A stretch of DNA of 64,000 nt. Origin: Candidatus Ratteibacteria bacterium. Lineage in GTDB: Bacteria > Ratteibacteria > UBA8468 > B48-G9 > DTJG01. Positions 7,714 through 31,018 of this stretch are shown here, piece by piece (positions within the stretch are counted from its first letter, which is position 1; each line of letters starts with the position of its first letter). Both the position numbers and the translations under genes were made by a program. Where the stretch lies: the NCBI GenBank assembly GCA_049971295.1, contig JBMFLH010000001.1, forward strand, positions 2,245-66,244, read 5' to 3'. The notes under the pieces were generated by a model. That model made no database searches. It saw nothing but the letters and a program-made list of their open reading frames with translations, and was not told the origin of the DNA.

Positions 7714-10132
7714 TACGATCTCCCTGATTAAGATTTATCAATTTTACACCAAGGGTACTCCGTCCAACCCTCCTGATTTCATTGACAGGCAATCTGATAA
7801 TCATTCCACCAGTCGTCATCACAATAATTTCGTCATCTTCCTGAACCATCTTTGTTTTCACAACATAACCTGTCTTACTGTTAACCTTCATATCAATCAC
7901 GCCCTTGCCACCTCTTTTTTGTCGCCTGTAATACTTGACATAGGTTCTCTTTCCATATCCATTTGACGAGACTGTCAGTATTTCCTCGGTTGGATTTTCA
8001 GAAGCAAAAACCTGACCGCAAATCACTTCATCTCTTGAACTTTTGAACCTTATCCCTATTACTCCCATACCCGTTCTGCCAATTGGCTTAACTTCCTGCT
8101 CACTGAATCGTATGCAGAAACCGTGTTTTGTAAAAAGCATAATATCCCTGTTGCCATCAGCAAGCTTCACATCAATTAGTTTATCATCGTTCTTCAATGT
8201 AATTCCAATAATTCCACCTTGTCTCGGTTTGCTATATGCAATGAGTGGCGTCTTTTTTACTATCCCTTTCTTTGTGAGCATGAGGATAAACTGACCGGAG
8301 GAAAAATCAGAAACTGGTATCACTGCCGCGATTTTCTCATCAGTTTGAATTTTTAGAAGGTTGACAAGTGGTTTACCACGCGCAACACGGCTCGCTTCAG
8401 GAATCAGATAACCTTTCAGCCAGTGAACCCTACCTGTTTCTGTAAATATCAGCAATTGGTCAACAGTTGAACATACAAACACATGTCTTACAAAATCATC
8501 CTCTTTTGTACCTGCTCCCAAAATTCCCCGTCCGCCGCGTCGCTGTCTTCTATAGGTTTCAAGAGGCAATCTTTTAATATAACCGTGGGCAGACACTGTA
8601 ACAACGATATCTTCGGGTCGCACAAGATCCTCATCACTTAACTCTTCTATTGGAGAACCAATTTCAGTGCGTCTTTTGTCAGAATATTTGTTTTTCAAAA
8701 TTTTCAATTCCCCTTCAATAATAGCATTGACCTTTTCTTTACTTGCAAGGATCGCCTTTAATTCATCAATCTTTTTGCTGATCTGGTCAAGTTCTTCCTC
8801 TATTTTATTTCTTTCAAGTTTTGTCAGTTTTCCCAGTGGCAAGGCGAGAATGGCATCCGCCTGTTTCTGACTCAAGGAAAACTTTTTCATCAAATTTTCT
8901 CTTGCTTCTTCAATACTGTTTGAATTTCTTATAAGAGAAATCACCTTATCAAGGTTGTCAACAGCTATTTTAAGCCCCAACAAAATATGATGCCTTTCTT
9001 CAGCTTTATTCAAATCAAAACGAGTTCTGCGAATAACAACATTTCTTCTGTGCTCGAGAAATAATTCGAGCATTTCTTTCAAAGTAAGAAGTTTTGGCTG
9101 CCTGTTCACCAGTGCAAGATTAATAATTCCGTATGTTGTCTGTAGCTGCGTATGTGAGTACAACTGGTTGATAATAATATCCGTATTCTCGCCTTTTCTT
9201 GTCTCCAGCACTATTCGTATACCTTCCTTGCTTGATTCATCTCTGACATTACTGACGCCACCTATTTTCTTTTCTTCGATCAGTTTGGCAATATTTTCAA
9301 CAAGAGTAGATTTGTTCACCTCGTAGGGAATCTCAGTAATGACAACATTATCGTGGTTTTTTGTTTCTTCAACTTCCACCCGTCCACGGATTGTTATAAT
9401 ACCTTTTCCGGTAGTATACGCTTCAACAATTCCCAGGGTTCCACAAATTATCCCACCTGTTGGGAAATCCGGTCCTGAAATAAATTTCATAATATCCTCA
9501 ATTGAGCAATCTGGATTTTTTATCATCATAATCAGTGCATCACATACCTCACCAAGATTATGTGGCGGGATGTTGGTTGCCATACCAACTGCGATGCCTG
9601 AAGAACCATTGATTAATAGATTAGGAACTTTGCTTGGAAGAACGACGGGTTCATTAAGAGATTCATCAAAATTAGGCATAAAATCCACTGTATCTTTTTC
9701 AATATCTGCAAGGATCTCCATAGCCAGTGGACGAAGCCTTGCCTCAGTATATCTCATTGCTGCTGGAGGGTCCCCGTCTATTGAACCAAAATTGCCTTGG
9801 CCATCAACCAGTACATACCTTAAAGTAAAATCCTGCGCCATCCTTGCAAGGGATTCGTAGATAGGCGAATCTCCATGAGGATGGTATTTCCCCATTACTT
9901 CTCCAACAATACGAGCGCTTTTTTTATAGGGTCTGCCTGGCTCAAGACCAAGTTCCATCATAGCGAAAAGAATTCTTCTGTGCACAGGTTTCAGCCCATC
10001 TCTAACATCAGGCAATGCCCGACCTATGATAACACTCATAGCATAATCAAGGTAGGAATTCTTCATCTCAATCTCTATTCCTACCGGCGTAATTTTTTCC
10101 CTTGGTGGTTGCTGTTTTTCTTTCTCGTCCAC
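7673..10132 (-). CDS. gyrA: DNA gyrase subunit A
   Basis: 819 aa; QRDR-region motifs ([22 protein letters not shown]), active-site Tyr region, and C-terminal beta-pinwheel repeats. Confidence 0.95.
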
Positions 10133-10150
10133 AATTCCTCCTTAAATTCC

Positions 10151-12526
<2,376 letters not shown>

Positions 12527-12631
12527 CTATTTTTTCTAAAAAATTATAGCATCTTATTGAGGCGAAGTCAAGAAAAAATTGTTTCTCTCAAATTTTCTAA
12601 AATTAGGAAAAATCAATTACTTAAGATTGAG

Positions 12632-14107
12632 TTATCCTGGAAAGTATCGTTCCTTAAAAAAATTTCTGTTAGCAGGCAAAAACCAAACAGGCGTATAATA
12701 CATCAAAAGAATTTTTTTGAGATAAAAATCGCGATAATTGTTGAAAATAAAGAGATTTCCATTAATCAAATAAAATTTCGCACCCATAACTTCCACGCTT
12801 TTTACTGACAAACTTTGAAAATACATCGCAAACTTTTCAACATCTTTTTCGTTGAGAGATACTATAAGAAAATTCTTTCTATCAAAATTTCTAAAATCTG
12901 TGATGTAATCATAGTATCTTCCACTCCTTGATATAGAACCAAATAAAACAAAATCCTTCCTGCAATAGTAAGACAGAACAGATGCTTCGGTGTAGCCTGT
13001 GGACGCGGGAACTCTTCCATCAAGATTTTTTTCAATTATCCCGCACAACTCCGCAGGATGCAAAAACATTACAATTTGTGGATACTTTCTTAATCCCTTA
13101 TATGCTTCAACTGGTATCGTAAAAATGACAACGACAATAATCATTACTGACAGAGAAAGATAAAAACAATGCCTCAGCGCTGCAGCAAGAACATCAAAGG
13201 GTAGGTATATAATAATAAGGAAGAAAAAAGGATAGAATGATGCCATCCAGTGTAATCCAATATTTTTTACAAATGAAATCAGAAGGAAGAAGAAAAATGG
13301 AACCAAGAAAACAAACCAGAACAAACTCTTTTTTCTGCACTCGTCCAGAAAAAATCTTTTTTCAAAAAATTTCACTGATAGAAATGGCGTCATCAGAAAA
13401 ATCTGTTCAATCAAATAAATACAAACATTAGAAAAATTGAAAGTCATCCCTTTGTTCCTATAAAATAGGTTGAACATGATATTCAGCCAGCAATGAGTAT
13501 AATTCCAGAAAATGTTCACCATAATAAGCGGCAAACTACCAATGAAAAATAAAACAAATGTTTTCCATACCTTTTTTCGGGCTGTAACAATACAAAAAAT
13601 TAACAATGCCATACCGTATAAAACAGAAAAATATTTTGAAAGAAAGGCGCATCCAAAGAAAAAACCAGATAACACAGCATCAAGTCTTCTTGAAGTTTTC
13701 AATGCTTTGTAGAAAAAAACACCTGAAAGAAATGTAAAAAGAATCAAAGGTACATCATTCACGCTCAAAACATTTAGAATACTAACAGGAGACAGCAAAA
13801 AAATAGAACCACATAAAAATGCCCTGTCTCTGTCCACCTCACTTAATAAATTCACGATAATGACTGCGATTAAAGGAATAGTAATGAGCGGAAAAATGCG
13901 GTAAACAAAAATGTCATTGCCAAAAAAAGAAAATAACCACATCACCCAACCTATCATTGGCGGATGTTCGTAATATCCCCAGCTAAGGTGTTTTGCCCAG
14001 ACAATAAAATATGCCTCGTCTCCGGTAATTGGAACAATTTTCGCAAAAAGTATTCTTATACAGGTAGAAATACCAAACATCCAGAGAAAAAGTTTTTTTG
14101 TATTCAT
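12632..14107 (-). CDS. GT39/GT83-type (ArnT/PMT-like) membrane glycosyltransferase
   Basis: N-terminal ITGDEAYFIVWAKHLSWGYYEHPPMIGW motif typical of the PMT_2/ArnT family; more than 10 TM. Confidence 0.65.
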   Translation of the reverse strand: MNTKKLFLWMFGISTCIRILFAKIVPITGDEAYFIVWAKHLSWGYYEHPPMIGWVMWLFSFFGNDIFVYRIFPLITIPLIAVIIVNLLSEVDRDRAFLCGSIFLLSPVSILNVLSVNDVPLILFTFLSGVFFYKALKTSRRLDAVLSGFFFGCAFLSKYFSVLYGMALLIFCIVTARKKVWKTFVLFFIGSLPLIMVNIFWNYTHCWLNIMFNLFYRNKGMTFNFSNVCIYLIEQIFLMTPFLSVKFFEKRFFLDECRKKSLFWFVFLVPFFFFLLISFVKNIGLHWMASFYPFFFLIIIYLPFDVLAAALRHCFYLSLSVMIIVVVIFTIPVEAYKGLRKYPQIVMFLHPAELCGIIEKNLDGRVPASTGYTEASVLSYYCRKDFVLFGSISRSGRYYDYITDFRNFDRKNFLIVSLNEKDVEKFAMYFQSLSVKSVEVMGAKFYLINGNLFIFNNYRDFYLKKILLMYYTPVWFLPANRNFFKERYFPG

Positions 14108-14175
14108 GCGTATATTATATTGCTTTTTGTCTGATTTTGCAGATAATGGAATTTCTGTTTATGGGTAATTCCAGC

Positions 14176-15480
14176 CTACTTCTTCCTTTGCCGTGTTTTC
14201 TTTAACGATGCCCTGCTTGCCTTACGCATCACAAGATTGATGGGAAGAAAAAACAGTGATGCTCTGTTGAATCGAACTGTTCGTCTGAATATTGAGTTAT
14301 ATGACGATATTCTTTTTCTTGCGTAATAATATCCTTTCTGTAATTGATCAACACTCAATAGTTTCGGTTTGAATACGACTTCCCCGCATGTATACTTTGT
14401 CCAATCTCGTTCAAATATTCTTCCCTGCTGGTTGAATTGATTGTATAAACGGGTTCCCGGTAATGGGGTAAGGATAGAAAAACTCGCAAGTTCAATCTTA
14501 TTCTGTTCAATAAAATCAATAGTCCTGTCAAAGACCTCGGGTCCATCTGAATCAAAACCAAAGATGAAAGCACCAATGATGCTTATTCCACTGTCGTGAA
14601 TTCGTTTGACTCCTTCCTTATACTCTCTGATACGGTTTATACTTTTTCCTACCTGTTTCAAACTTTCTTCTGAAATTGATTCAAACCCTATGAAAAGAGC
14701 CTTGCATCCACTCTTTGCAGCCAACCTGAGCAGTTTTGGATTTCTGGCTATTGTGATAGATGCCTGTGAAAACCACCTTTTCTTAAGAGGAATTAGAGCT
14801 TCGAATAGTTCTCTGGCATGCTCTGGAAGCCCGGCAATATTATCGTCAACAAAGAAAATGACAGCCCTGTTTTTTAATTGTTTAACCTCCCTGACTATAT
14901 CCTCAACTGGTCTTGTTCGGTAAGTGCGTCCAAAAAAATCAGAAACACTGCAGAAATCACAACCAAAAGGACATCCCCTTGTTGCTTGAACCAGATCCAT
15001 TTCCCTGTAAAATTTATTGCCAAATAAAAGATCTTTTCTTGGTAAAGGAAGTTTTGAAAGATCCGGTCTCTCAGTTGAGGCATAAAATTTCTGTAAATTG
15101 CCAGAATGAAAATCCTTCAATAATCTATCCATTACACTTTCTGCTTCACCAATGACGACTGCGTCCGCATGAAGAGATGCTTCGTGAGGAAGGACAGATG
15201 GATGTATTCCACCCATTATAACAGAAACTCCCCTTTTTCTGAATTCGTCAGCAATTTCATATGCTCTCGGAGCAGTGGATGTAATGGTCGTAATACCCAC
15301 TAAATCAACCTTCTCATCAAAATCTATCTCATCAAGGCTGTCATTGATGATTTTAATATCTGTATCTGGTGGAAAGAGTGCGGCGACTGATGTCAAACTC
15401 AGTCTTGCGAACTGAACTGCCCTATCTCTTTTTGTAACAGATACTACCGGTGACCTGGGCGAAATTAAATTAACTCGCAT
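14176..15480 (-). CDS. B12-binding-domain radical SAM protein
   Basis: N-terminal B12-binding-like domain, CxxxCxxC radical SAM motif (ATRGCPFGCDFCSVS). Start trimmed to the internal Met (MRVNLISP) to remove overlap with the divergent gene. Confidence 0.75.
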   Translation of the reverse strand: MRVNLISPRSPVVSVTKRDRAVQFARLSLTSVAALFPPDTDIKIINDSLDEIDFDEKVDLVGITTITSTAPRAYEIADEFRKRGVSVIMGGIHPSVLPHEASLHADAVVIGEAESVMDRLLKDFHSGNLQKFYASTERPDLSKLPLPRKDLLFGNKFYREMDLVQATRGCPFGCDFCSVSDFFGRTYRTRPVEDIVREVKQLKNRAVIFFVDDNIAGLPEHARELFEALIPLKKRWFSQASITIARNPKLLRLAAKSGCKALFIGFESISEESLKQVGKSINRIREYKEGVKRIHDSGISIIGAFIFGFDSDGPEVFDRTIDFIEQNKIELASFSILTPLPGTRLYNQFNQQGRIFERDWTKYTCGEVVFKPKLLSVDQLQKGYYYARKRISSYNSIFRRTVRFNRASLFFLPINLVMRKASRASLKKTRQRKK

Positions 15481-15622
15481 ATTAAAAATATTATCATACC
15501 TTGTGGCTAATATGTCAACAAAACAATATATTGCTGAGTCATATGAATATTTCAACCATTTTGTCACTTGTTGTAAAATAGAGGCAAAGGGAAAACCACC
15601 ACCCATTATAACAGGGGGACTT

Positions 15623-16597
15623 ATGGAAAAGAAAATCAGGATGGGAATTATTGGGGCAGGGGGAAGAGCAAACTTCCAGGCACAAGCCATCATTGAAAGT
15701 GGAATTGGAGAACCTGTTATTGTTTACTCACCTTTTGAAAACGAAGCCAGAAAATTTTCAGAAAAATTTAAAATTAGATACACAAACTCCATTGAAGATA
15801 TTTTCTACTCCACTGATATTACAGCAATCACAATTTCAACTCCAAATGCAACGCATTATATGTTTGCAAAAAAAGGTCTTGAAAATAATAAACATGTTCT
15901 TGTTGAATATCCTCCAACCCTAAATATTCAGGAACTTGATGATTTGATAAATATCGCCAGCAATAGAAACCTTGTTTACTGGGTCAGCCTTACTCAGATA
16001 CTGGAAAATCCTTTTTATACAATCAAAAAAAATATCAATTCCATTGGACAGTTGATTTTCTCTTATTACACATACGTTTCATCTTTTCTGGGTGGATGGT
16101 ACGCTGATTCTGAACTTTGTGGTCCACTTTATGTCGCGCAACATTTCCATTTTGTGAGCCAATTACTCGAACTGGAACATGATGCTGAATCTGTCTGTGC
16201 ATTTGAAAACATCAAATACAGCAACGATAATAAAAAAATGGTTTCCACTGCATCAATAATGGTTTTGAAATTCCCATCCGGGCACATCGCAAACATTGAA
16301 TTTGCCATGGGTATCAAAAATGCCAGAGATTTTAAAATCAAATTTGTAGGAGAAAATGGAATACTTAACTTTGATGGGAAGAAACTGTACCTTGAAACAA
16401 AGGAAACTGGAAAAAAAGAATTAGAAATTGAGGAAAGCAATTTAAATATTGATACAATAAATTTTTTGAAACATATTGTGGATAGTTCTACTGATACTAA
16501 AACAGCGATAAAAGCAAGAAAAATATTAAAAACCTGTCTGTGTGCAGAAATATCTGCAAAAGAAGAAAGAATTGTAAAAATAGAAAAATCCGGATGA
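15623..16597 (+). CDS. Gfo/Idh/MocA-family NAD(P)-dependent oxidoreductase
   Basis: Rossmann N-terminus MEKKIRMGIIGAGGRANFQAQAI. Start set at the internal ATG 15623; the upstream extension overlaps the divergent gene. Confidence 0.7.
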   Translation: MEKKIRMGIIGAGGRANFQAQAIIESGIGEPVIVYSPFENEARKFSEKFKIRYTNSIEDIFYSTDITAITISTPNATHYMFAKKGLENNKHVLVEYPPTLNIQELDDLINIASNRNLVYWVSLTQILENPFYTIKKNINSIGQLIFSYYTYVSSFLGGWYADSELCGPLYVAQHFHFVSQLLELEHDAESVCAFENIKYSNDNKKMVSTASIMVLKFPSGHIANIEFAMGIKNARDFKIKFVGENGILNFDGKKLYLETKETGKKELEIEESNLNIDTINFLKHIVDSSTDTKTAIKARKILKTCLCAEISAKEERIVKIEKSG

Positions 16598-17645
16598 AAA
16601 CAGAGAACATACCAAAAGAGACTGACATTGTGGTAATAGGCGCTGGCATTATGGGGTGCTCCATCGCCTATCATTTGTCAAAAGAAACCAGGGAAGTGAT
16701 TGTATTTGAAAAACGGAGTATTGCATCGGGCGCAAGCGGAAGAAATGGAGGCCAGGTAATACAACTCGAAGGTAGGGATAAAAATCCTGAAACAATAAAA
16801 GCGCGTCTTTTGGTGGCAAAAGAAAACAACAAAATGCTGAAAAATCTTGAAAAAGAATTAAATTCTACACTTGAATACCAGAAAGTGGGAAGCCTGGATA
16901 TCGCGCTGAACGAAGAAGAATGGAAAGACATAAAGAAAACAGTTAGAATTCAACAGAAAGCCGGTGATAGAGAAATAGAATTATTGGATAAACGAGAAAT
17001 TCTCAAAAAGTGCCCTTATTAACAGAAAAAGTTTATGGGGCAAGATATAGGGCATCAGATGGAACAATCAATCCATTTTTTCTGACTCATGAGTTTGCTT
17101 TTAAAGCGATGAAAAATGGCGCAAGATTTTTTACAAACATCAGAGTCAAAAAAATCATCACAGACAACAAAAAAGTCAAAGAAATTGAACTTAAAAATAA
17201 TCAGAAAGTAAAATGTGGAGCCGTCATCAACGCCACAAATGCTTGGTCAATCCTCTTGTGTTATGAAAAATTATTCAAGCATATACATCAGGAAAACATG
17301 TACACAGGTCTTCTATTGGACGGCGATATCAGTAGCATCCTTGACGACTTATTAAAAATGGAAATTGATGTTATTCAATTTGTGCAACCAAATGTAAGCG
17401 GCATAAAAACACTCAAAGAAAAAGTCAAGGGTAAAAAATGCTTAAAATGCAGCGTGGATATGATGAGTACACTTGCATACGGAACACCAGAAGATGTGAA
17501 AAAAGAAGCAGAAGCGCTGGTAGAAAACCTAAATGCAAAAGAAGGTGGTTTTATATGTAATGTCATGCGCTGGTACAGACCCAGTTATCCAGAAAGAAAT
17601 GTTCTTGCATCAGTTGAAACTTTTAACAAATATAGAAAAAAATGA
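16594..17645 (+). pseudogene. Disrupted and chimeric FAD-dependent oxidoreductase (DAO family, HcnC/SoxB/OoxB-like). There is a -1 frameshift near 17005-17010 (A5 run, CTC AAA AAG). The 3' third is replaced by the C-terminal roughly 130 aa of a URO-D/MtaA-like methyltransferase.
   Basis: Frame A (16594-17022) holds the DAO N-terminus (IVVIGAGIMGCSIAYHL...GRNGGQV). Frame B (17010-17645) continues the DAO (VPLLTEKVYGARYRASDGTINPF...GAVINATNAWS), then switches to URO-D-like sequence (GTPEDVKKEAEALVENLNAKEGGFICNV...PERNVLASVETFNKY). Confidence 0.5.
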
Positions 17646-17959
17646 AAAAAATTGATTTCAGAATTTATGACCACCCCATACTTGGAAGGATAATCCAAAA
17701 AAAGAAAGTATCAATTTATTTCAATAATAAAAAATTGATTGCCTATGAAGGTGAAACGATTGCAGCGGCACTGTATGCAAATGGAATAAGGGTGCTCAGA
17801 AAGACAGAAAAATTCAAACAACCGCGTGGCATTTTCTGCGCAATTGGAAGATGCACTGACTGTGTGATGACAGTCGATGGAATACCTAATGTAAGAACGT
17901 GTATTACACCGGTAAAAAACAAAATGAAAATTGAATTTCAAAAAGGTTCGGGCAGGTGA
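17642..17959 (+). CDS. (2Fe-2S)-binding protein (HcnA / opine oxidase / sarcosine oxidase alpha N-terminal-like)
   Basis: Motif FCAIGRCTDCVMTVDGIPNVRTC. ATGA overlap with the upstream ORF. Confidence 0.7.
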   Translation: MKKIDFRIYDHPILGRIIQKKKVSIYFNNKKLIAYEGETIAAALYANGIRVLRKTEKFKQPRGIFCAIGRCTDCVMTVDGIPNVRTCITPVKNKMKIEFQKGSGR

Positions 17960-19038
17960 AAAAAAAAGAACTGGTAATTATTGGTGGAGGGCCTGCAGGA
18001 CTCTGCGCAGCAATAGAAGCCAGAAAAAAAGGCATTGATGTTCTATTGATTGATGAAAACCTCAGACCTGGGGGTCAACTCTTCAAACAGATTCATAGAT
18101 TTTTTGGTTCCAGACAACATATGGCTGGCATCAGGGGTATTTCAATAGGAGAAACACTGCTGAGAGAGGTTGAAAAACTTGGAGCGGATGTCTGGTTAAA
18201 TAGTGTTGTTTACGGAATTTTTGGAAACAGAATAATAGGAGTGGTAAAAAACATTCTGGTCAAAGCAGAAACAATTCTTGTAGCAGCAGGAGCACTTGAA
18301 AACTCATTGGCTTTCCCTGGTTGGACACTTCCGGGTGTAATGGGAGCCGGCGCCTGTCAAACAATGATAAATATACACAGGGTTTTGCCCGGGAAAAAAG
18401 TACTGATGATAGGGGCAGGAAATGTGGGTTTAATCGTTGCGTATCAATTACTTCAGGCAGGCGCTGAGGTCAAAGCAATCATTGATATCATGCCTGAAAT
18501 TAGCGGCTATATGGTTCATGCGGCTAAAATCAAAAGATGTGGAGTGCCAATTTTTCTTTCCACAACAGTAATTGAAGCCACTGGAAAAAATGAAGTGAAA
18601 GCAGTAATAATATGCCCTGTTGATAACAACTTTGAGCCCATTTATAAAAAAAGAAAACTTCTGGATGTGGACCTGATTTGCATAGGCACCGGACTTTCGC
18701 CACTCAACGAACTATTATATCAGGTGGGTTGTGAATTTACATATAAACCATATCTTGGTGGACGTGTAGCACTGCACAATGAAAATATGGCAACAACTGT
18801 TGACGGAATTTTTGTTGCAGGAGATTGTTCAGGCATAGAAGAAGCATCAACAGCCATGGAGGAAGGTAAACTTGCAGGAATATCCGCAGCCGAGAAAGTT
18901 AGAAAAAAAAGATGGGATGATGAAAAATTGGACATAAGAAACCGGCTTAATGATTTCAGGATTGGTACCTTCGGAGAAAAAAGAAAAATTTCAAAAAAAG
19001 TGATAATAAACGAATACCATGAAAAAATTAAAAATTGA
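17956..19038 (+). CDS. FAD/NAD(P)-binding pyridine nucleotide-disulfide oxidoreductase (HcnB/OoxA-like subunit)
   Basis: N-terminal LVIIGGGPAGLCAAIEARKKGIDVLLIDEN, second Rossmann motif MIGAGNVGLIVA. Confidence 0.75.
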   Translation: MKKKELVIIGGGPAGLCAAIEARKKGIDVLLIDENLRPGGQLFKQIHRFFGSRQHMAGIRGISIGETLLREVEKLGADVWLNSVVYGIFGNRIIGVVKNILVKAETILVAAGALENSLAFPGWTLPGVMGAGACQTMINIHRVLPGKKVLMIGAGNVGLIVAYQLLQAGAEVKAIIDIMPEISGYMVHAAKIKRCGVPIFLSTTVIEATGKNEVKAVIICPVDNNFEPIYKKRKLLDVDLICIGTGLSPLNELLYQVGCEFTYKPYLGGRVALHNENMATTVDGIFVAGDCSGIEEASTAMEEGKLAGISAAEKVRKKRWDDEKLDIRNRLNDFRIGTFGEKRKISKKVIINEYHEKIKN

Positions 19039-19501
19039 CGAGACTATGTATATAAAAATCCCCGGATTCCCTTCCGAACAAAGAATAAAAAAAGGACCGG
19101 TTGCAGTTATTGAATGTGCACAGGATATCCCCTGCAATCCCTGTGAAACTATATGCCCGAAAAAAGCAATAAAAGTTGGGATTCCTATCACAAACTTACC
19201 TGAACTTGACCAGGATAAGTGCAGTGGCTGTGGATTATGTATTCCTGTGTGTCCTGGACTCGCTATATTTGTTCTCAACTATAATTTTGACAAAAAAAAT
19301 GCAAGTTTGACAATTCCTTACGAGTTTCTGCCAATTCCAGATAAAAGCGAAAAAATAAAGTGCATTGATAGAAATGGGAAACGTGTATGCAATGGCAGGA
19401 TTGTCAGGGTTATACCTCCAGAAAAAAATAGCGGAACATCCATCATAACCTTTTCGTTTCCGAAAAAATATTTCAACGTAGTCAGAAACTTTAAAAAATG
19501 A
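19019..19501 (+). CDS. 4Fe-4S ferredoxin-domain protein
   Basis: Cys clusters CNPCETICP and CSGCGLCIPVCP. Confidence 0.6.
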   Translation: MKKLKIDETMYIKIPGFPSEQRIKKGPVAVIECAQDIPCNPCETICPKKAIKVGIPITNLPELDQDKCSGCGLCIPVCPGLAIFVLNYNFDKKNASLTIPYEFLPIPDKSEKIKCIDRNGKRVCNGRIVRVIPPEKNSGTSIITFSFPKKYFNVVRNFKK

Positions 19502-19773
19502 AAAAAGACAAAATCATATGTAGATGTAAAGAAATCACCGAAGGACAAATTCTTGAAGTTATTGGAAAGGGTATTATTGACGTAGACAGTGTGAAAAGAG
19601 CACTGGGAGCAGGCATGGGGTTGTGTCAGGGCAAAACATGCACAAACCTTATTATTAAAATTATCAGCCAGAATAAGGACATCCCTGTAAAAGATGTAAA
19701 AACACAAACAAGCAGGGCACCAGTACGACCGATTCCAATCAAAACAATTTCTAAACAACCAACCGAAGACTGA
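19498..19773 (+). CDS. BFD-like (2Fe-2S)-binding domain protein
   Basis: CRCKEITEGQI...GLCQGKTC pattern of BFD-like [2Fe-2S] domains. Confidence 0.7.
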   Translation: MKKDKIICRCKEITEGQILEVIGKGIIDVDSVKRALGAGMGLCQGKTCTNLIIKIISQNKDIPVKDVKTQTSRAPVRPIPIKTISKQPTED

Positions 19774-19805
19774 GGTAGAATATATTCATAACAACGAAAT
19801 GGGAA

Positions 19806-20073
19806 AGGAAATGAAAATAAATAATGCAGCCATCACGACCATAGAACTTCTCACTCTTATTGCACTTGCCTCGCTTGGAAGCAGTATCTTTTTCCCTGAA
19901 ATTGTCCGGATAAAAGAAAAAACAAATCAGGCGTTATGCGTAACCAACCTCAAACAGTGCTATATGGCACATATGATGTATGCCGCTGATTTCAATGATT
20001 ACCTGGTTCCAAATGAAAATCCAAAACAACCTGACTACCCGAGGGTGTGGACAACAGTGCTGATGGGATATTA
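19806..20073. repeat. Perfect 268-bp direct repeat, copy 1 (RBS plus 5' end of a DUF1559 gene)
   Basis: Base-by-base comparison with 30751-31018 shows identity. Identity ends at 20074 (t) versus 31019 (c) and at 19805 (a) versus 30750 (g). Confidence 0.9.
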
Positions 20074-20095
20074 TAGTACTTGTGGACCAGCATAA
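19811..20095 (+). pseudogene. Truncated DUF1559 prepilin-like gene fragment (94 aa). The first 87 codons are identical to the gene at 30756. It lacks the H-X9-DG C-terminal domain and ends in a divergent tail (STCGPA*).
   Basis: Nucleotides 19806-20073 are 100% identical to 30751-31018. The prepilin-like N-terminal hydrophobic helix is present, but the ORF stops after 94 aa. Confidence 0.6.
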
Positions 20096-20159
20096 TTAAA
20101 AACAATTTCCCTTACCAAACAATTTTTGAGATTCACACGCATTGCTTTTAGAAGACTGG

Positions 20160-20188
20160 TTGATATTTCAGAGTTTTAACGGTATAAT
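20160..20188 (+). promoter_or_regulatory. Sigma70-type promoter for tRNA-Ser (TTGATA-N17-TATAAT)
   Basis: TTGATA at 20160-20165, 17-bp spacer, TATAAT at 20183-20188, about 10 bp upstream of the tRNA 5' end. Confidence 0.5.
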
Positions 20189-20198
20189 GAATAGCACA

Positions 20199-20289
20199 GG
20201 AGGGGTCGCATAGAGGTCTAGTGCGGCGGATTGCTAATCCGTTGTATCGTCGAAAGGCGGTACCGTGGGTTCAAATCCCACCCCCTCCG
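20199..20289 (+). tRNA. tRNA-Ser (anticodon GCU), class II with long variable arm
   Basis: Perfect 7-bp acceptor stem (GGAGGGG/CCCCTCC), discriminator G, anticodon loop TTGCTAA, hairpin variable arm, T-arm GTGGG-TTCAAAT-CCCAC. CCA not encoded. Confidence 0.85.
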
Positions 20290-20407
20290 TTTTATCTCCC
20301 TCAAAGGATTTGAATGGAGCGGTGCTGGTGCGAGGAAACGAGCACCGTATGGCACAAAGGTCGAGAAAATGAGGCAGGACGGATCGACCAACAGCAGTGG
20401 ATAAAGG

Positions 20408-21454
20408 CTAATTAAAAAGGGACTCCATTTCAACCTTTTTCTTTAATTCTTCTGTCTTCTCTTTAAGTCCTCTGGTTTTTAAAAGAACCTCTGATATTTC
20501 CTTAAGATTGATCTCTGGACTTTTTTTCATCCTATCATAATAAGACATTACTAAGCTCCAAACATTTGCAAGTTGTTCTCCCTGACCCTTTAATGATGGA
20601 ATGGAATAAGCTTTTTCTATCCAGGGTTTGTAATCTGCCTCATATACCTGTGCAAGAGATGTAATTTTCCATTTCAAGATGTTGTACCTCGGTTCATTAA
20701 TTTCATGTTCAATGGCGTCAGATTCTTTTTTATTCAACATCTTTTTTTTGAAAACAATTGTCCCATAATTCTCCACTTCATGAAATGACTTTTGAATTTT
20801 CGGCCAGCATGAAACTCTTTCTTCTGCTGGTCCTGTGAGATTATTTCTTCCAACGTTTATTTTCCACTTTTCTCCATCAGATGGTATCTTCCCGAGCACC
20901 TTGAATGGTATTTTTATTTCAACTGACCAGAAATCTTTACCAACAAAACTTTTCGCCTGCCAGTTCTCGAGAGGAACCGTCTGAGCGATACCTACCGCAT
21001 TCCACTTTGAACTGATTGTGTTGACAATAAATTGCCAGCAATTCATCTCAGGAGGAATAAGAAATAATTCAACACTATCTTCCATCCATAAAAATTTGTC
21101 CCCATCTGGTCTTTTTGCTTCAATTTTCTGGACATCTGGCTCTTCAGCCTTAAAGGCAAAATAAAAATTTTCATTATCCCAGCCCGCCTTGAACCATGAT
21201 GGTTTGACCGTGGCAAATTCATTCCCGCCAAGAAGGAAAAAACACCTGGCTTCAGGAATAAACTGCCAGCAATCATCATCAACCTTGCCATCCAGAACCG
21301 GTTCCTTTTTGATTAGATAACACTGATACAATGAAATTTCTTTTGCGTTAATGAGATTGTCTTTAAGCTGTGTATTTTTGATATTGTCGGCAATAGCACA
21401 TCCAGCATAAAGCAATAAACAGATAAATAAAATTATATTCTGTAGTTTATACAT
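20408..21454 (-). CDS. Secreted protein with CBM9-like (DOMON-type) carbohydrate-binding domain
   Basis: Signal peptide (MYKLQNIILFICLLLYAGCAIA). CBM9-like block LDGKVDDDCWQFIPE...ATVKPSWFKAGWDNENFYFAFKAEEPD...SVELFLIP. Start trimmed to ATG 21454. Confidence 0.5.
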   Translation of the reverse strand: MYKLQNIILFICLLLYAGCAIADNIKNTQLKDNLINAKEISLYQCYLIKKEPVLDGKVDDDCWQFIPEARCFFLLGGNEFATVKPSWFKAGWDNENFYFAFKAEEPDVQKIEAKRPDGDKFLWMEDSVELFLIPPEMNCWQFIVNTISSKWNAVGIAQTVPLENWQAKSFVGKDFWSVEIKIPFKVLGKIPSDGEKWKINVGRNNLTGPAEERVSCWPKIQKSFHEVENYGTIVFKKKMLNKKESDAIEHEINEPRYNILKWKITSLAQVYEADYKPWIEKAYSIPSLKGQGEQLANVWSLVMSYYDRMKKSPEINLKEISEVLLKTRGLKEKTEELKKKVEMESLFN

Positions 21455-28752: not shown

Positions 28753-30759
28753 ATGAAAACAAAATATCAACTGAACGTGTTTGAAAATGAAAAGGAAATT
28801 GGCATTGCCTGTCCTTACTGGATAGTCAAACATTCAAAGGAAAAAGGCGGCACGATTTCAGAAATTATCTTCAAGCAGGGCACTCAAAAAAATATTCTGG
28901 TTGAACCGTTAAGTTCCATGATTTTATTAAAGGAAGGGAATAATTATAATCGTTACTACGAATCTGAATGCAAAAATCCTGAAATAATGGTAGAGGAAAA
29001 AGAAAACATTGTGGTGACCTCACGCGGTACATACACCTGTGAAAATGGACAATGTGCTGATATTAAATACATAACTACATACCATTATAATGATTACGGG
29101 CTTGTAAGTATCACGCTTGAATTGAATTTCTCAAACACAGTAAAAAATATCATATCACTTAGTATCCTGAAGTTCTCTGTCTGTGGTTCATTAAATACTG
29201 CTGGTTATATACCATATGCGCAAAATGGGTTTTACCCATCGAGTTTTGAAAAGGTTATATGGAAGGAATTTGTTCAAAGACACTATTACAACAACGCTCT
29301 GTTAATGGGAAAATTCAGACCCGCGTATTTCTGCATTCTTCAAAGAAGGGTAGAGGGCATTGAAATTTTTAGCCCTGATATCATTGAAGATAACAGGTTT
29401 TTCAATAACAAAGAAAACACTGGATTCTATCAGGCGCGTTACCATGATGTTAAAAACATTGTTGAGATAGAGTTTTCGCCCTATGGAGAATGGCAACTCC
29501 CTATCTCGATGAAAAAAGGAAAATATTTATTTTCATATTTTCTTGGACTTCCTTCTAGCAAAGGGAAAAACGTGGTTCACCAACCATATTTTCATGCAAG
29601 GATTGACAGCAGATGGCCGGATGAAAAACAACTGGATATTCTTGCGAAATCAGGGGTGAAATTGATTCGACTACACAATGATTATAGAGAAGACGGTCCT
29701 TTCTGGCACGATGGGTGTTATCCACCATATGACAGAAAAAACATGGAAAAAATGGACTGGGTGATTGAACAAGTTCACAAACGAAAGATGAAAATCGTTC
29801 CGTATTTTTCTTTGAAGGAACTTCATCCAGATGCTCCTGAGTATAAAAAATTCAGAAAACTCTGGAAAAGAACGATTGATAAAAAATACTCTGTAATTCA
29901 CAATTATGCAGGTACCGGTGAATATGGCGCCCAGATGTGCCTGTGCTCAGGATGGAAAGAATTTAGAAAAAAATCTATAGACATCGTATTGAAAAAACAT
30001 TCTTTTGACGGAGTTTATTATGATTGGGTGGCATCTCTGCATTGCAACAATCCTGCTCATTTTGACGGAAAACAGCATACCGATATTGAACAGCTTATTG
30101 ACCTGATATTCTGGACAAGGAAAAGAGTTGGACCAGATGGAATAGTTTTCCTTCATCTTTCAGGGGTACCTATGATGGTTATTGAGAATACAGCAGATAT
30201 CATCTACACCCATGAAGACCTTCCATGGCTGGCTCCATACCCCGGGGACTTTTCACCTGAAACTGATTTTGCTGGAATCACCGTACATCAAATTACGACT
30301 TGCAATCTCTGCAATGATTCAGAAAAAGAAAAATTCTTTACACTCAGCTGTTTTCTCGAAGGGCTGTGGGTTTGTCCGAGAAATATTTCTGATAATGACC
30401 CTGTTGTAAAAGAAATGAAAAAATTTAGTCAATATGACCTCACATCCTATCAGTTTCAACCAGCCAGCGAAAAACCAGTTCATATCACCAGTACAAATAT
30501 TTACGCGTCTTTGTACTGGAAAACAGATTCAGTTCTGATTTATGTTGCAAACCTCAGCAACCAAAAAACATCAGGAAATATTCATGTCAATCTCACACCG
30601 AAAAACTGGAGTTGTACAACACAGGTAAGAATTAAATCACCTTATCTGATGAAAAAAACTAATATTGAGAAACTTTTTCGATATGGAGAAAAGCTGATAC
30701 TTTCACCATGGGAAAGTTATTTAATAGAAATTGAAAAACCTAAAAGGGGGAGGAAATGA
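28753..30759 (+). CDS. Hypothetical 668-aa protein, possibly a TIM-barrel glycoside-hydrolase-like enzyme
   Basis: Start trimmed to ATG 28753, overlapping the upstream stop. No signal peptide. No family assigned from sequence alone. Confidence 0.5.
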   Translation: MKTKYQLNVFENEKEIGIACPYWIVKHSKEKGGTISEIIFKQGTQKNILVEPLSSMILLKEGNNYNRYYESECKNPEIMVEEKENIVVTSRGTYTCENGQCADIKYITTYHYNDYGLVSITLELNFSNTVKNIISLSILKFSVCGSLNTAGYIPYAQNGFYPSSFEKVIWKEFVQRHYYNNALLMGKFRPAYFCILQRRVEGIEIFSPDIIEDNRFFNNKENTGFYQARYHDVKNIVEIEFSPYGEWQLPISMKKGKYLFSYFLGLPSSKGKNVVHQPYFHARIDSRWPDEKQLDILAKSGVKLIRLHNDYREDGPFWHDGCYPPYDRKNMEKMDWVIEQVHKRKMKIVPYFSLKELHPDAPEYKKFRKLWKRTIDKKYSVIHNYAGTGEYGAQMCLCSGWKEFRKKSIDIVLKKHSFDGVYYDWVASLHCNNPAHFDGKQHTDIEQLIDLIFWTRKRVGPDGIVFLHLSGVPMMVIENTADIIYTHEDLPWLAPYPGDFSPETDFAGITVHQITTCNLCNDSEKEKFFTLSCFLEGLWVCPRNISDNDPVVKEMKKFSQYDLTSYQFQPASEKPVHITSTNIYASLYWKTDSVLIYVANLSNQKTSGNIHVNLTPKNWSCTTQVRIKSPYLMKKTNIEKLFRYGEKLILSPWESYLIEIEKPKRGRK

Positions 30760-31018
30760 AAATAAATAATGCAGCCATCACGACCATAGAACTTCTCACT
30801 CTTATTGCACTTGCCTCGCTTGGAAGCAGTATCTTTTTCCCTGAAATTGTCCGGATAAAAGAAAAAACAAATCAGGCGTTATGCGTAACCAACCTCAAAC
30901 AGTGCTATATGGCACATATGATGTATGCCGCTGATTTCAATGATTACCTGGTTCCAAATGAAAATCCAAAACAACCTGACTACCCGAGGGTGTGGACAAC
31001 AGTGCTGATGGGATATTA
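30751..31018. repeat. Perfect 268-bp direct repeat, copy 2 (native 5' end of the full-length DUF1559 gene)
   Basis: Identical to 19806-20073. This copy is translationally coupled (ATGA) to the upstream 704-aa ORF. Confidence 0.9.

Follow-up and report, generated by a model that had tools for sequence, protein, structure and literature searches.

A probable composite pseudogene formed from two adjacent genes of a conserved seven-gene operon in Candidatus Ratteibacteria

Introduction

Heteromeric dehydrogenases built from DAO-family, Pyr_redox_2 and iron–sulfur subunits form a group to which HcnABC belongs. Two types of complex formed by dye-linked L-proline dehydrogenases, α4β4 and αβγδ, have been described for the archaea Pyrococcus and Thermococcus (PMC8704557, PMC4141209). 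The locus considered here, positions 16594–17645 of a 64,000-nt stretch of DNA from Candidatus Ratteibacteria bacterium (GCA_049971295.1, contig JBMFLH010000001.1, positions 2,245 to 66,244 of the forward strand; hereafter the window), lies in a gene cluster with subunits of these types. It consists of a DAO-like reading frame, which changes frame and then runs into the end of a URO-D-like gene. With a probability of about 90%, we regard it as what is left of two neighbouring genes in a conserved seven-gene operon, inactivated by a 1,207-nt deletion and the loss of one further nucleotide. An earlier note on this DNA had left three options for the frame change; of these, a genuine inactivating deletion is retained and a programmed −1 frameshift is dismissed, while a homopolymer error is unlikely because three assemblies agree.

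Results

Reading frames at the broken gene pair

The locus comprises two overlapping open reading frames (ORFs) on the + strand. The ATG of ORF1 (16594–17022, 142 amino acids (aa)) and the TGA of the GFO/IDH/MocA gene upstream of it overlap as ATGA. It aligns with positions 1–129 of the Pfam DAO profile (E 2e-27) and carries the GxGxxG dinucleotide-binding motif (VIGAGIMG, residues 13–20), which is matched by both DAO and NAD_binding_8. ORF2 (17010–17645, 211 aa from a GTG) takes up the DAO profile at positions 129–209 with its residues 2–83 (E 4.3e-11) and then matches positions 224–346 of the 346-position URO-D profile with residues 84–208 (E 1.3e-7); the NCBIfam profiles split the two ORFs in the same way. 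Hence the frame change coincides with the point at which the DAO homology resumes, and a second discontinuity lies at ORF2 residue 84/85. The stop of ORF2 overlaps the ATG of the Fer2_4 gene as ATGA (17642–17645). Altogether, only positions 1–209 of the DAO profile (1–353) are found in the window, distributed over two frames, and positions 210–353 including the C-terminal segment that binds flavin adenine dinucleotide (FAD) are deleted. Of the URO-D barrel of approximately 340 residues, only profile positions 224–346 (orthologue residues 221–347) are left. The earlier note had described the stop of the DAO frame at 17022, the resumption of the homology in the −1 frame and the URO-D-like end coupled by ATGA to the 2Fe-2S gene, and the profile coordinates agree with it in each respect; these features are real and far beyond chance.

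The features of the region are compiled in Table 1. If translated, the frame of the first DAO segment continues to the TAA at 17020–17022. The GFO/IDH/MocA gene is also called at the corresponding site of a near-identical assembly (L001, 5770–6744), and region 171–490 of the NCBIfam soxA-family model matches the Pyr_redox_2 protein (E 3.9e-37). An Rfam search over 15000–21000 returned a tRNA-Ser only. A promoter and terminator scan of 15300–20300 was uninformative: it gave 26 promoter-like sites, where 14.8 are expected for AT-rich DNA, and no more terminators than by chance.

Table 1. Features of the module and of the lesions in the window (L003 and L004, relatives with an intact module)
Feature	Position	Strand	Evidence
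GFO/IDH/MocA-family dehydrogenase gene, intact, first of the module	15623..16597	+	Pfam GFO_IDH_MocA E 2.7e-22; 64% identity to L003 over 317 aa
Probable DAO pseudogene, segment A: codons 1–139 and first two bases of the Cys140 codon, original frame	16594..17012	+	78% identity to L003 DAO residues 5–139
A5 run (CTC AAA AAG), earlier proposed slip site, not the place of the base loss	17005..17009	+	Nucleotide alignment with L004
Site of one-base loss: third base of the Cys140 codon TGY or one C of TGC-CCC, −1 frame	17012..17013	+	Single 1-nt blastn gap versus L004
Probable DAO pseudogene, segment B: codons 141–223, shifted frame, last codon Cys223 TGT 17259–17261	17013..17261	+	82% identity to L004 DAO 138–225
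Deletion junction: 1,207 nt absent versus L004 positions 806–2012	17261..17262	+	blastn segment pairs versus L004 abut (window 17268 / 17262)
Remnant of the URO-D-like gene: codons 221–347 and stop, last ~37% of a TIM-barrel protein	17262..17645	+	94% identity to L004 URO-D 221–347, 83% to L003
Fer2_4 [2Fe-2S] subunit gene (HcnA / SoxA N-terminal type), open, 6 residues shorter than orthologues	17642..17959	+	Pfam Fer2_4 E 7e-30; length by alignment with L005 and L003
Pyr_redox_2 flavoprotein subunit gene (α-subunit-like), intact	17956..19038	+	Pfam Pyr_redox_2 E 1.4e-34; 75% identity to L003 over 362 aa
4Fe-4S ferredoxin-like subunit gene, intact	19019..19501	+	Pfam Fer4 / LdpA_Fe-S-bd E 1.3e-8; 76% identity to L003 over 160 aa
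BFD-like [2Fe-2S] / SO_alpha_A3 small subunit gene, intact, last of the module	19498..19773	+	Fer2_BFD E 1.4e-11, SO_alpha_A3 E 2.6e-9; 73% identity to L003

The intact module in relatives

The conserved gene order of the module is GFO/IDH/MocA, DAO (402–404 aa), URO-D-like (347 aa), Fer2_4, Pyr_redox_2, 4Fe-4S ferredoxin and BFD-like. In L003 (GCA_049970595.1), the proteins comprise 317 (GFO_IDH_MocA), 402 (DAO), 347 (URO-D), 111 (Fer2_4), 363 (Pyr_redox_2), 160 (Fer4) and 89 aa (BFD/SO_alpha_A3). The module is also intact in L004, the closest intact relative, in the Omnitrophota-labelled metagenome-assembled genomes (MAGs) L006 and L008, and in the metagenome contigs L011–L013 of the L004 lineage (module coordinates: L003 5393–10731, L006 4834–10172, L008 2–3367, window 15623–19773). 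The DAO gene is one uninterrupted ORF of 402–404 aa in L003, L004, L006, L011, L012 and L013. All module genes are present and collinear in the window save for DAO residues 224–404 and URO-D residues 1–220, and the flanks of the broken pair match those of the relatives, with GFO upstream and Fer2_4, Pyr_redox_2, Fer4 and BFD downstream. The ancestral order proposed in the earlier note, DAO, MtaA-like (here URO-D-like) and 2Fe-2S with an internal deletion in between, is therefore the order seen in the intact loci (L003, L004, L006, L008 and L011–L013); the intact homologues which it had suggested looking for in related MAGs carry separate DAO and URO-D genes.

A homology search with ORF2 retrieved only URO-D-family proteins, mostly of 345–353 aa and with about 60% query coverage. 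One match was the 129-aa protein P0001 of a Candidatus Ratteibacteria MAG, which is 99% identical. The relatives were obtained by homology search; when ORF2 and the Pyr_redox_2 protein were looked up in the contig index as exact sequences, neither gave a match. Scanning metagenomes with a 27-mer taken just right of the junction returned only the intact sister-lineage contigs L011–L013. A homology search with the frame-restored N-terminal 223 aa of DAO was not used, as it gave only matches of ≤66% identity and missed the 86%-identical DAO of L004 (patchy word index). No paralogue of the DAO or the URO-D-like gene was found in the 64-kb window.

Two lesions relative to the intact genes

Aligned with L004 by blastn, the locus splits into a left high-scoring segment pair (HSP; 82% identity, with a single 1-nt gap) and a right HSP (92% identity), which end and start, respectively, at window 17261|17262, corresponding to L004 positions 805 and 2013. 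The same breakpoint resulted from tblastn with the intact orthologues (DAO parts E 4e-89, URO-D part E 5e-78), and it falls inside the interval of about 17240–17290 estimated in the earlier note. The missing 1,207 nt correspond to 181 DAO codons (224–404), the stop codon, a 1-nt spacer and 220 URO-D codons (1–220), that is, the 3′ 45% of DAO and 63% of the URO-D-like gene from its 5′ end. At the join, Cys223 of DAO is followed by Tyr221 of URO-D, and the original DAO frame is continuous with the URO-D frame. Any microhomology at the junction is short because the parental sequences share just TGAAA, two bases 3′ of the join (CCTGAAA versus TATGAAA).

The 1-nt gap marks the second lesion. At this site, L004 reads CTT AAA AAA TGT CCC TTG TTA and the window CTC AAA AAG TG- CCC TTA TTA. 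Both L003 (TGT CCT TTA) and L004 fit TGT CC(T/C) TT(A/G), encoding C-P-L. A gap at the third base of the Cys codon costs one gap and one mismatch, whereas a gap in the A5 run costs three extra mismatches and would also abolish a Cys conserved in all orthologues. Since the alignment with L004 then needs the fewest changes and L003 reads likewise, the lost base is the third base of the Cys140 codon (17012/17013) or, equivalently, one C of an ancestral TGC-CCC. The earlier note had placed the loss in the A5 run (17005–17009), an assignment that the alignment with L004 moves 3–4 nt downstream; L004 has A6 at this run solely because its following codon is AAA and not AAG.

In the reading favoured here, the loss of 1,207 nt in this Ratteibacteria lineage fused DAO Cys223 in frame to URO-D Tyr221, and the base loss in the Cys140 codon cuts the fused frame into ORFs of 142 and 211 codons; this reading assigns no order to the two lesions. 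Neither ORF should be able to yield a functional enzyme, because the DAO part is devoid of most of the substrate-binding domain and of the C-terminal FAD segment, and of the URO-D TIM barrel just the last third remains. From what is known of the flavoenzyme fold, the missing DAO part holds both of these elements; in the L004 protein, the FAD-binding segment is the YIAAGFSNGMAYGAIVGK region. With the catalytic, β-like DAO subunit gone, the four downstream electron-transfer subunit genes would be orphaned if the rest of the genome holds no paralogue.

Reproducibility of the lesions

Both lesions recur in two further assemblies. L001 (GCA_049699515.1) aligns with window 9854–17871 over 8,018 nt with 2 mismatches and no gaps, and L002 (GCA_049968895.1) with window 16707–18805 over 2,099 nt with 4 mismatches and no gaps. 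Each alignment spans the two lesions; at 99.8–99.97% identity to the window, the base loss and the junction are identical. A sequencing error is thus unlikely, because other public assemblies carry both lesions. At the remnant, the NCBI annotation of L001 and L002 contains only a 129-aa "uroporphyrinogen decarboxylase family protein". Six single-nucleotide polymorphisms (SNPs) occur among the three near-identical assemblies, including 16816 and 17120 (L002) in the DAO remnant and 17695 (L001) in Fer2_4. Because these SNPs separate them, the assemblies are not copies of one consensus, although the SNPs are too few for any test. A metagenome scan for the shift region, in which A5 or A6 and a gap of 0 or 1 base at the Cys codon were allowed, gave no match and neither shows nor excludes an unshifted allele of this lineage in the collection scanned.

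The independent low-coverage contig L005 (ERZ795047) belongs to the intact sister lineage. Its position 1 corresponds to L004 position 2005, 8 nt upstream of the equivalent of window 17262. This start near the deletion end may be a coincidence or may reflect structural heterogeneity at that spot in the sample.

A step in divergence at the junction

The URO-D remnant (17262–17641) differs from the L004 lineage at 20 of 380 nt (5.3%), with 0.20 synonymous substitutions per synonymous site (dS). Directly left of the junction, 69 of 381 nt are mismatched (18%; dS 0.95 for the DAO part), and in the next 459 nt to the right 67 (15%; dS 0.61 for Fer2_4 and 0.50 for Pyr_redox_2). Both the left and the right contrast are significant (Fisher p 3e-8 and 7e-6, respectively). 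Likewise, the remnant is 94–96% identical to L004, L005 and L012, while the rest of the syntenic block of about 5 kb shows 76–91% identity. When the remnant was compared with 16594–17261 and 17642–20073, the position of the step in divergence was exactly that of the deletion junction. Synonymous sites do not evolve slowly in the region as a whole, since the dS versus L003 is about 2 in all segments.

Most simply, the low-divergence remnant can be read as a recent recombination tract in common with the sister lineage. The left edge of this tract would lie either at the junction itself or inside the deleted DNA, in which case a later deletion would have cut the tract. Tentatively, and with the odds rather against it, the deletion could have been made not by a simple spontaneous loss but during the import of L004-like DNA by homology-facilitated illegitimate recombination, with a homologous right end near the URO-D/Fer2_4 boundary and an illegitimate left end inside the DAO gene. 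A tract edge at the junction is the product expected from such an event, which would explain the low divergence of the remnant.

Age of the inactivation and state of the downstream genes

When the window is compared with L004, the ratio of nonsynonymous to synonymous substitution rates (dN/dS) amounts to 0.08 in the DAO part and to 0.13 in the URO-D part, and no further stops or indels have accumulated in the remnant. Changes at otherwise conserved residues were polarised with L003, L006 and L008 as outgroups. In the DAO part, 8 were window-specific and 3 sister-specific, a difference that is not significant at low power; the URO-D part had none of either kind (0 versus 0). The counts in the neighbouring genes were balanced (9/9, 2/4, 12/8, 3/2 and 4/1). 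Long-standing relaxed selection was not detected in the remnant or the downstream genes by dN/dS and polarised changes, which have little power here. As further stops are absent, dN/dS has stayed low and lineage-specific changes are not significantly in excess, the inactivation would be recent when set against the split from the L004 lineage.

In the four downstream genes, decay is not measurable apart from one change at the end of Fer2_4, where L005 reads GGC AGG TGG AAG AAA AAG and the window GGC AGG TGA AAA AAA AAG; the change from TGG to TGA trims 6 residues. In the window, two G to A changes (17950–17970) also give an A9 run (17959–17967) right after the GTG with which the Pyr_redox_2 gene starts; runs of this length are prone to slippage.

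Nature of the module

The closest relative of the intact DAO orthologue among solved structures is 1y56_B, the β subunit of the L-proline dehydrogenase complex of Pyrococcus horikoshii (E 4.4e-51), followed by glycine oxidases and SoxB. The Pyr_redox_2 protein resembles the SoxA family and 1y56_A, Fer2_4 matches the N-terminal region of SoxA, and the BFD/SO_alpha_A3 piece has a weak SoxA-family match (E 5e-4). To judge from these similarities, the module looks like a split α subunit plus a β subunit.

The intact URO-D-like orthologue belongs to the same Pfam family (PF01208) as MtaA, MtbA, CmuA and HemE, and among NCBIfam models it is most similar to the MtaA-type ones. It remains far below their cut-offs, with 49.7 versus 235.4 bits for TIGR01463, 57.6 versus 400 for NF040654 and 58.3 versus 244 for NF004889; over the MtaA/CmuA/MtbA models, it scores 50–58 bits at cut-offs of 235–600, of which those for MtaA/CmuA/PRK06252 span 235–400, and for HemE 27 bits at a cut-off of 303. 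No sequence relative was found among solved structures at E ≤ 0.01. The module has no corrinoid partner: genes for a corrinoid protein or a substrate methyltransferase are absent from the module and its flanks in L003, L006, L008 and the window. Only the window has a B12-binding radical-SAM gene, upstream and on the opposite strand, and it does not encode a corrinoid methyl carrier. The URO-D-like protein is thus a distinct branch of the URO-D family, to which no activity is assigned here. A GHL6-type glycosidase-like gene and an SSF transporter gene come after the module in L003 and L008. Because of this context and the GFO/IDH/MocA dehydrogenase, the substrate may be linked to sugars or amino sugars rather than to methylamines. 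The methylated-amine oxidation and demethylation module assumed in the earlier note has no support: the URO-D-like protein scores low, a corrinoid gene is lacking and DAO is closest to 1y56_B among solved structures.

Neighbouring repeat

A perfect 268-nt direct repeat (19806–20073 and 30751–31018) spans the 5′ portion of a DUF1559/prepilin-like gene. Its copies flank a 10.9-kb segment with a tRNA-Ser (20199–20289) first and large minus-strand genes. In L012, the BFD-like gene is directly followed by one full-length copy of the pilin-like gene. Since L012 runs straight from one gene to the other, the window has an insertion or duplication after the BFD-like gene, and the 98-aa ORF at 19799–20095 is a truncated duplicate.

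Discussion

The alternatives to a pseudogene concern the reality of the lesions, the decoding of the frame change and a remaining role of the fragment. The lesions would be artefacts if the missing base were a homopolymer sequencing or consensus error, the DAO/URO-D junction an assembly mis-join, or both, with the real genes intact. This is very unlikely, although the source is a MAG judged from assembled sequence, the lost base perhaps lay within a short C run (TGC-CCC), and the start of L005 beside the junction position could point to a complication in the assembly graph. Across both lesions, three assemblies that were deposited separately and differ in SNPs agree without gaps. At most about 5 nt are shared near the junction, which is far under any assembler k-mer and makes a mis-join in a de Bruijn graph implausible, and at C3/C4 the run is too short to attract homopolymer errors of the usual kind. 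The related contigs are SPAdes-style short-read assemblies. As to decoding, a dnaX-type site consists of the heptamer A AAA AAG with an upstream Shine–Dalgarno sequence and a downstream hairpin, and A-AAG motifs are shift-prone in bacteria. The AAA-AAG lysine codons of the window lie a few bases upstream of the frame change, and a −1 slip of tRNA-Lys on A-AAG (17007–17010) would restore the DAO frame (...EILKK-VPLLTEK...). A programmed −1 frameshift on C-AAA-AAG, by which ORF1 and ORF2 would be merged into a functional DAO/URO-D chimera, is nonetheless extremely improbable. The heptamer C AAA AAG (17004–17010) starts with C and does not follow X XXY YYZ, so that its first position bars re-pairing in the P site. 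The homology switches frame at the Cys codon, from which the base is missing, downstream of the A run and not at the lysine codons. All intact orthologues are unshifted, which leaves the site without conservation. No significant structure lies downstream: the minimum free energy of 17011–17100 (90 nt) is −18.8 kcal/mol against a shuffle mean of −16.4 kcal/mol (z −0.84), and 40 of 200 shuffles equalled or exceeded its stability. Moreover, the shifted product of about 350 aa would be without DAO residues 224–404 (45%) and URO-D residues 1–220 (63%).

A natural DAO/URO-D fusion was considered and rejected. In a search of 1.84 billion representative proteins, none of the best 150 HMMER matches covered both halves of ORF2, so that neither a counterpart of the chimera nor a homologue with the same fusion, which the earlier note had named as possible contrary evidence, was found. 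Each of the 150 aligned either with ORF2 residues 1 to about 86–93 (positions ~137–229 of proteins of ~400 aa) or with residues ~83–211 (the C-terminus of proteins of ~330–360 aa). It is also quite improbable that ORF2 or the 129-codon URO-D tail is kept open for a residual role, in which its ATGA delivers ribosomes to the Fer2_4, Pyr_redox_2, Fer4 and BFD genes, whose products would work with another flavoprotein. This idea would account for a deletion that is in frame, an ORF2 free of stops over 636 nt in a genome of 35% GC, a preserved ATGA coupling and four downstream genes that are open and show balanced lineage-specific change. An in-frame join, however, has a prior of one in three, and a young coding remnant is expected to stay open for some time. 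The GTG at 17010 lacks a recognisable Shine–Dalgarno sequence, the 64-kb window holds no alternative DAO partner, and Fer2_4 itself has a premature stop that removes 6 residues. Some observations weigh against the pseudogene: ORF2 is still open over 211 codons and ends in a translationally coupled ATGA, which would permit a residual hand-over of ribosomes to Fer2_4, and the four downstream genes are without sign of decay. In addition, the lesions were read from assembled contigs alone, which do not cover allele frequencies within populations, and the three assemblies stem from populations that are very similar, and their sampling may be less than fully independent.

If the locus is the composite pseudogene proposed here, its annotation should flag the interval as one pseudogene with a DAO 5′ part and a URO-D 3′ part; neither a recoding site nor a 129-aa "uroporphyrinogen decarboxylase family protein" should be annotated there. 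In metabolic reconstructions, the lineage should be scored as lacking the module activity. The pseudogene matters little beyond annotation. Two side points are of modest value. One is the divergence step, a small natural example that could bear on the linkage of recombination and deletion in uncultivated populations. The other is the uncharacterised URO-D-like protein within an operon of the HcnABC/proline dehydrogenase type, which is conserved in several Ratteibacteria and Omnitrophota MAGs.

Compared with known systems, the module shares its subunit types with heteromeric DAO/Pyr_redox_2/iron–sulfur dehydrogenases such as L-proline dehydrogenase and the heterotetrameric sarcosine oxidase. 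It differs from the known L-proline dehydrogenase complexes by the additional GFO/IDH/MocA dehydrogenase and by the URO-D-like protein encoded between the β-like and γ-like genes, an arrangement not described in PMC8704557 and PMC4141209. In the window, the β-like DAO gene is destroyed, and the complex cannot form from the genes present there. The broken pair itself resembles bacterial pseudogenes that arose by internal deletion and frameshift, with which it shares syntenic intact orthologues, two disabling lesions, truncated domains unable to fold and the call of a short (129-aa) tail. The only unusual detail is the coincidence of the deletion edge with a step in divergence from the sister lineage. 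The locus is a case of ordinary gene decay, an event of a known kind from which nothing essential sets it apart.

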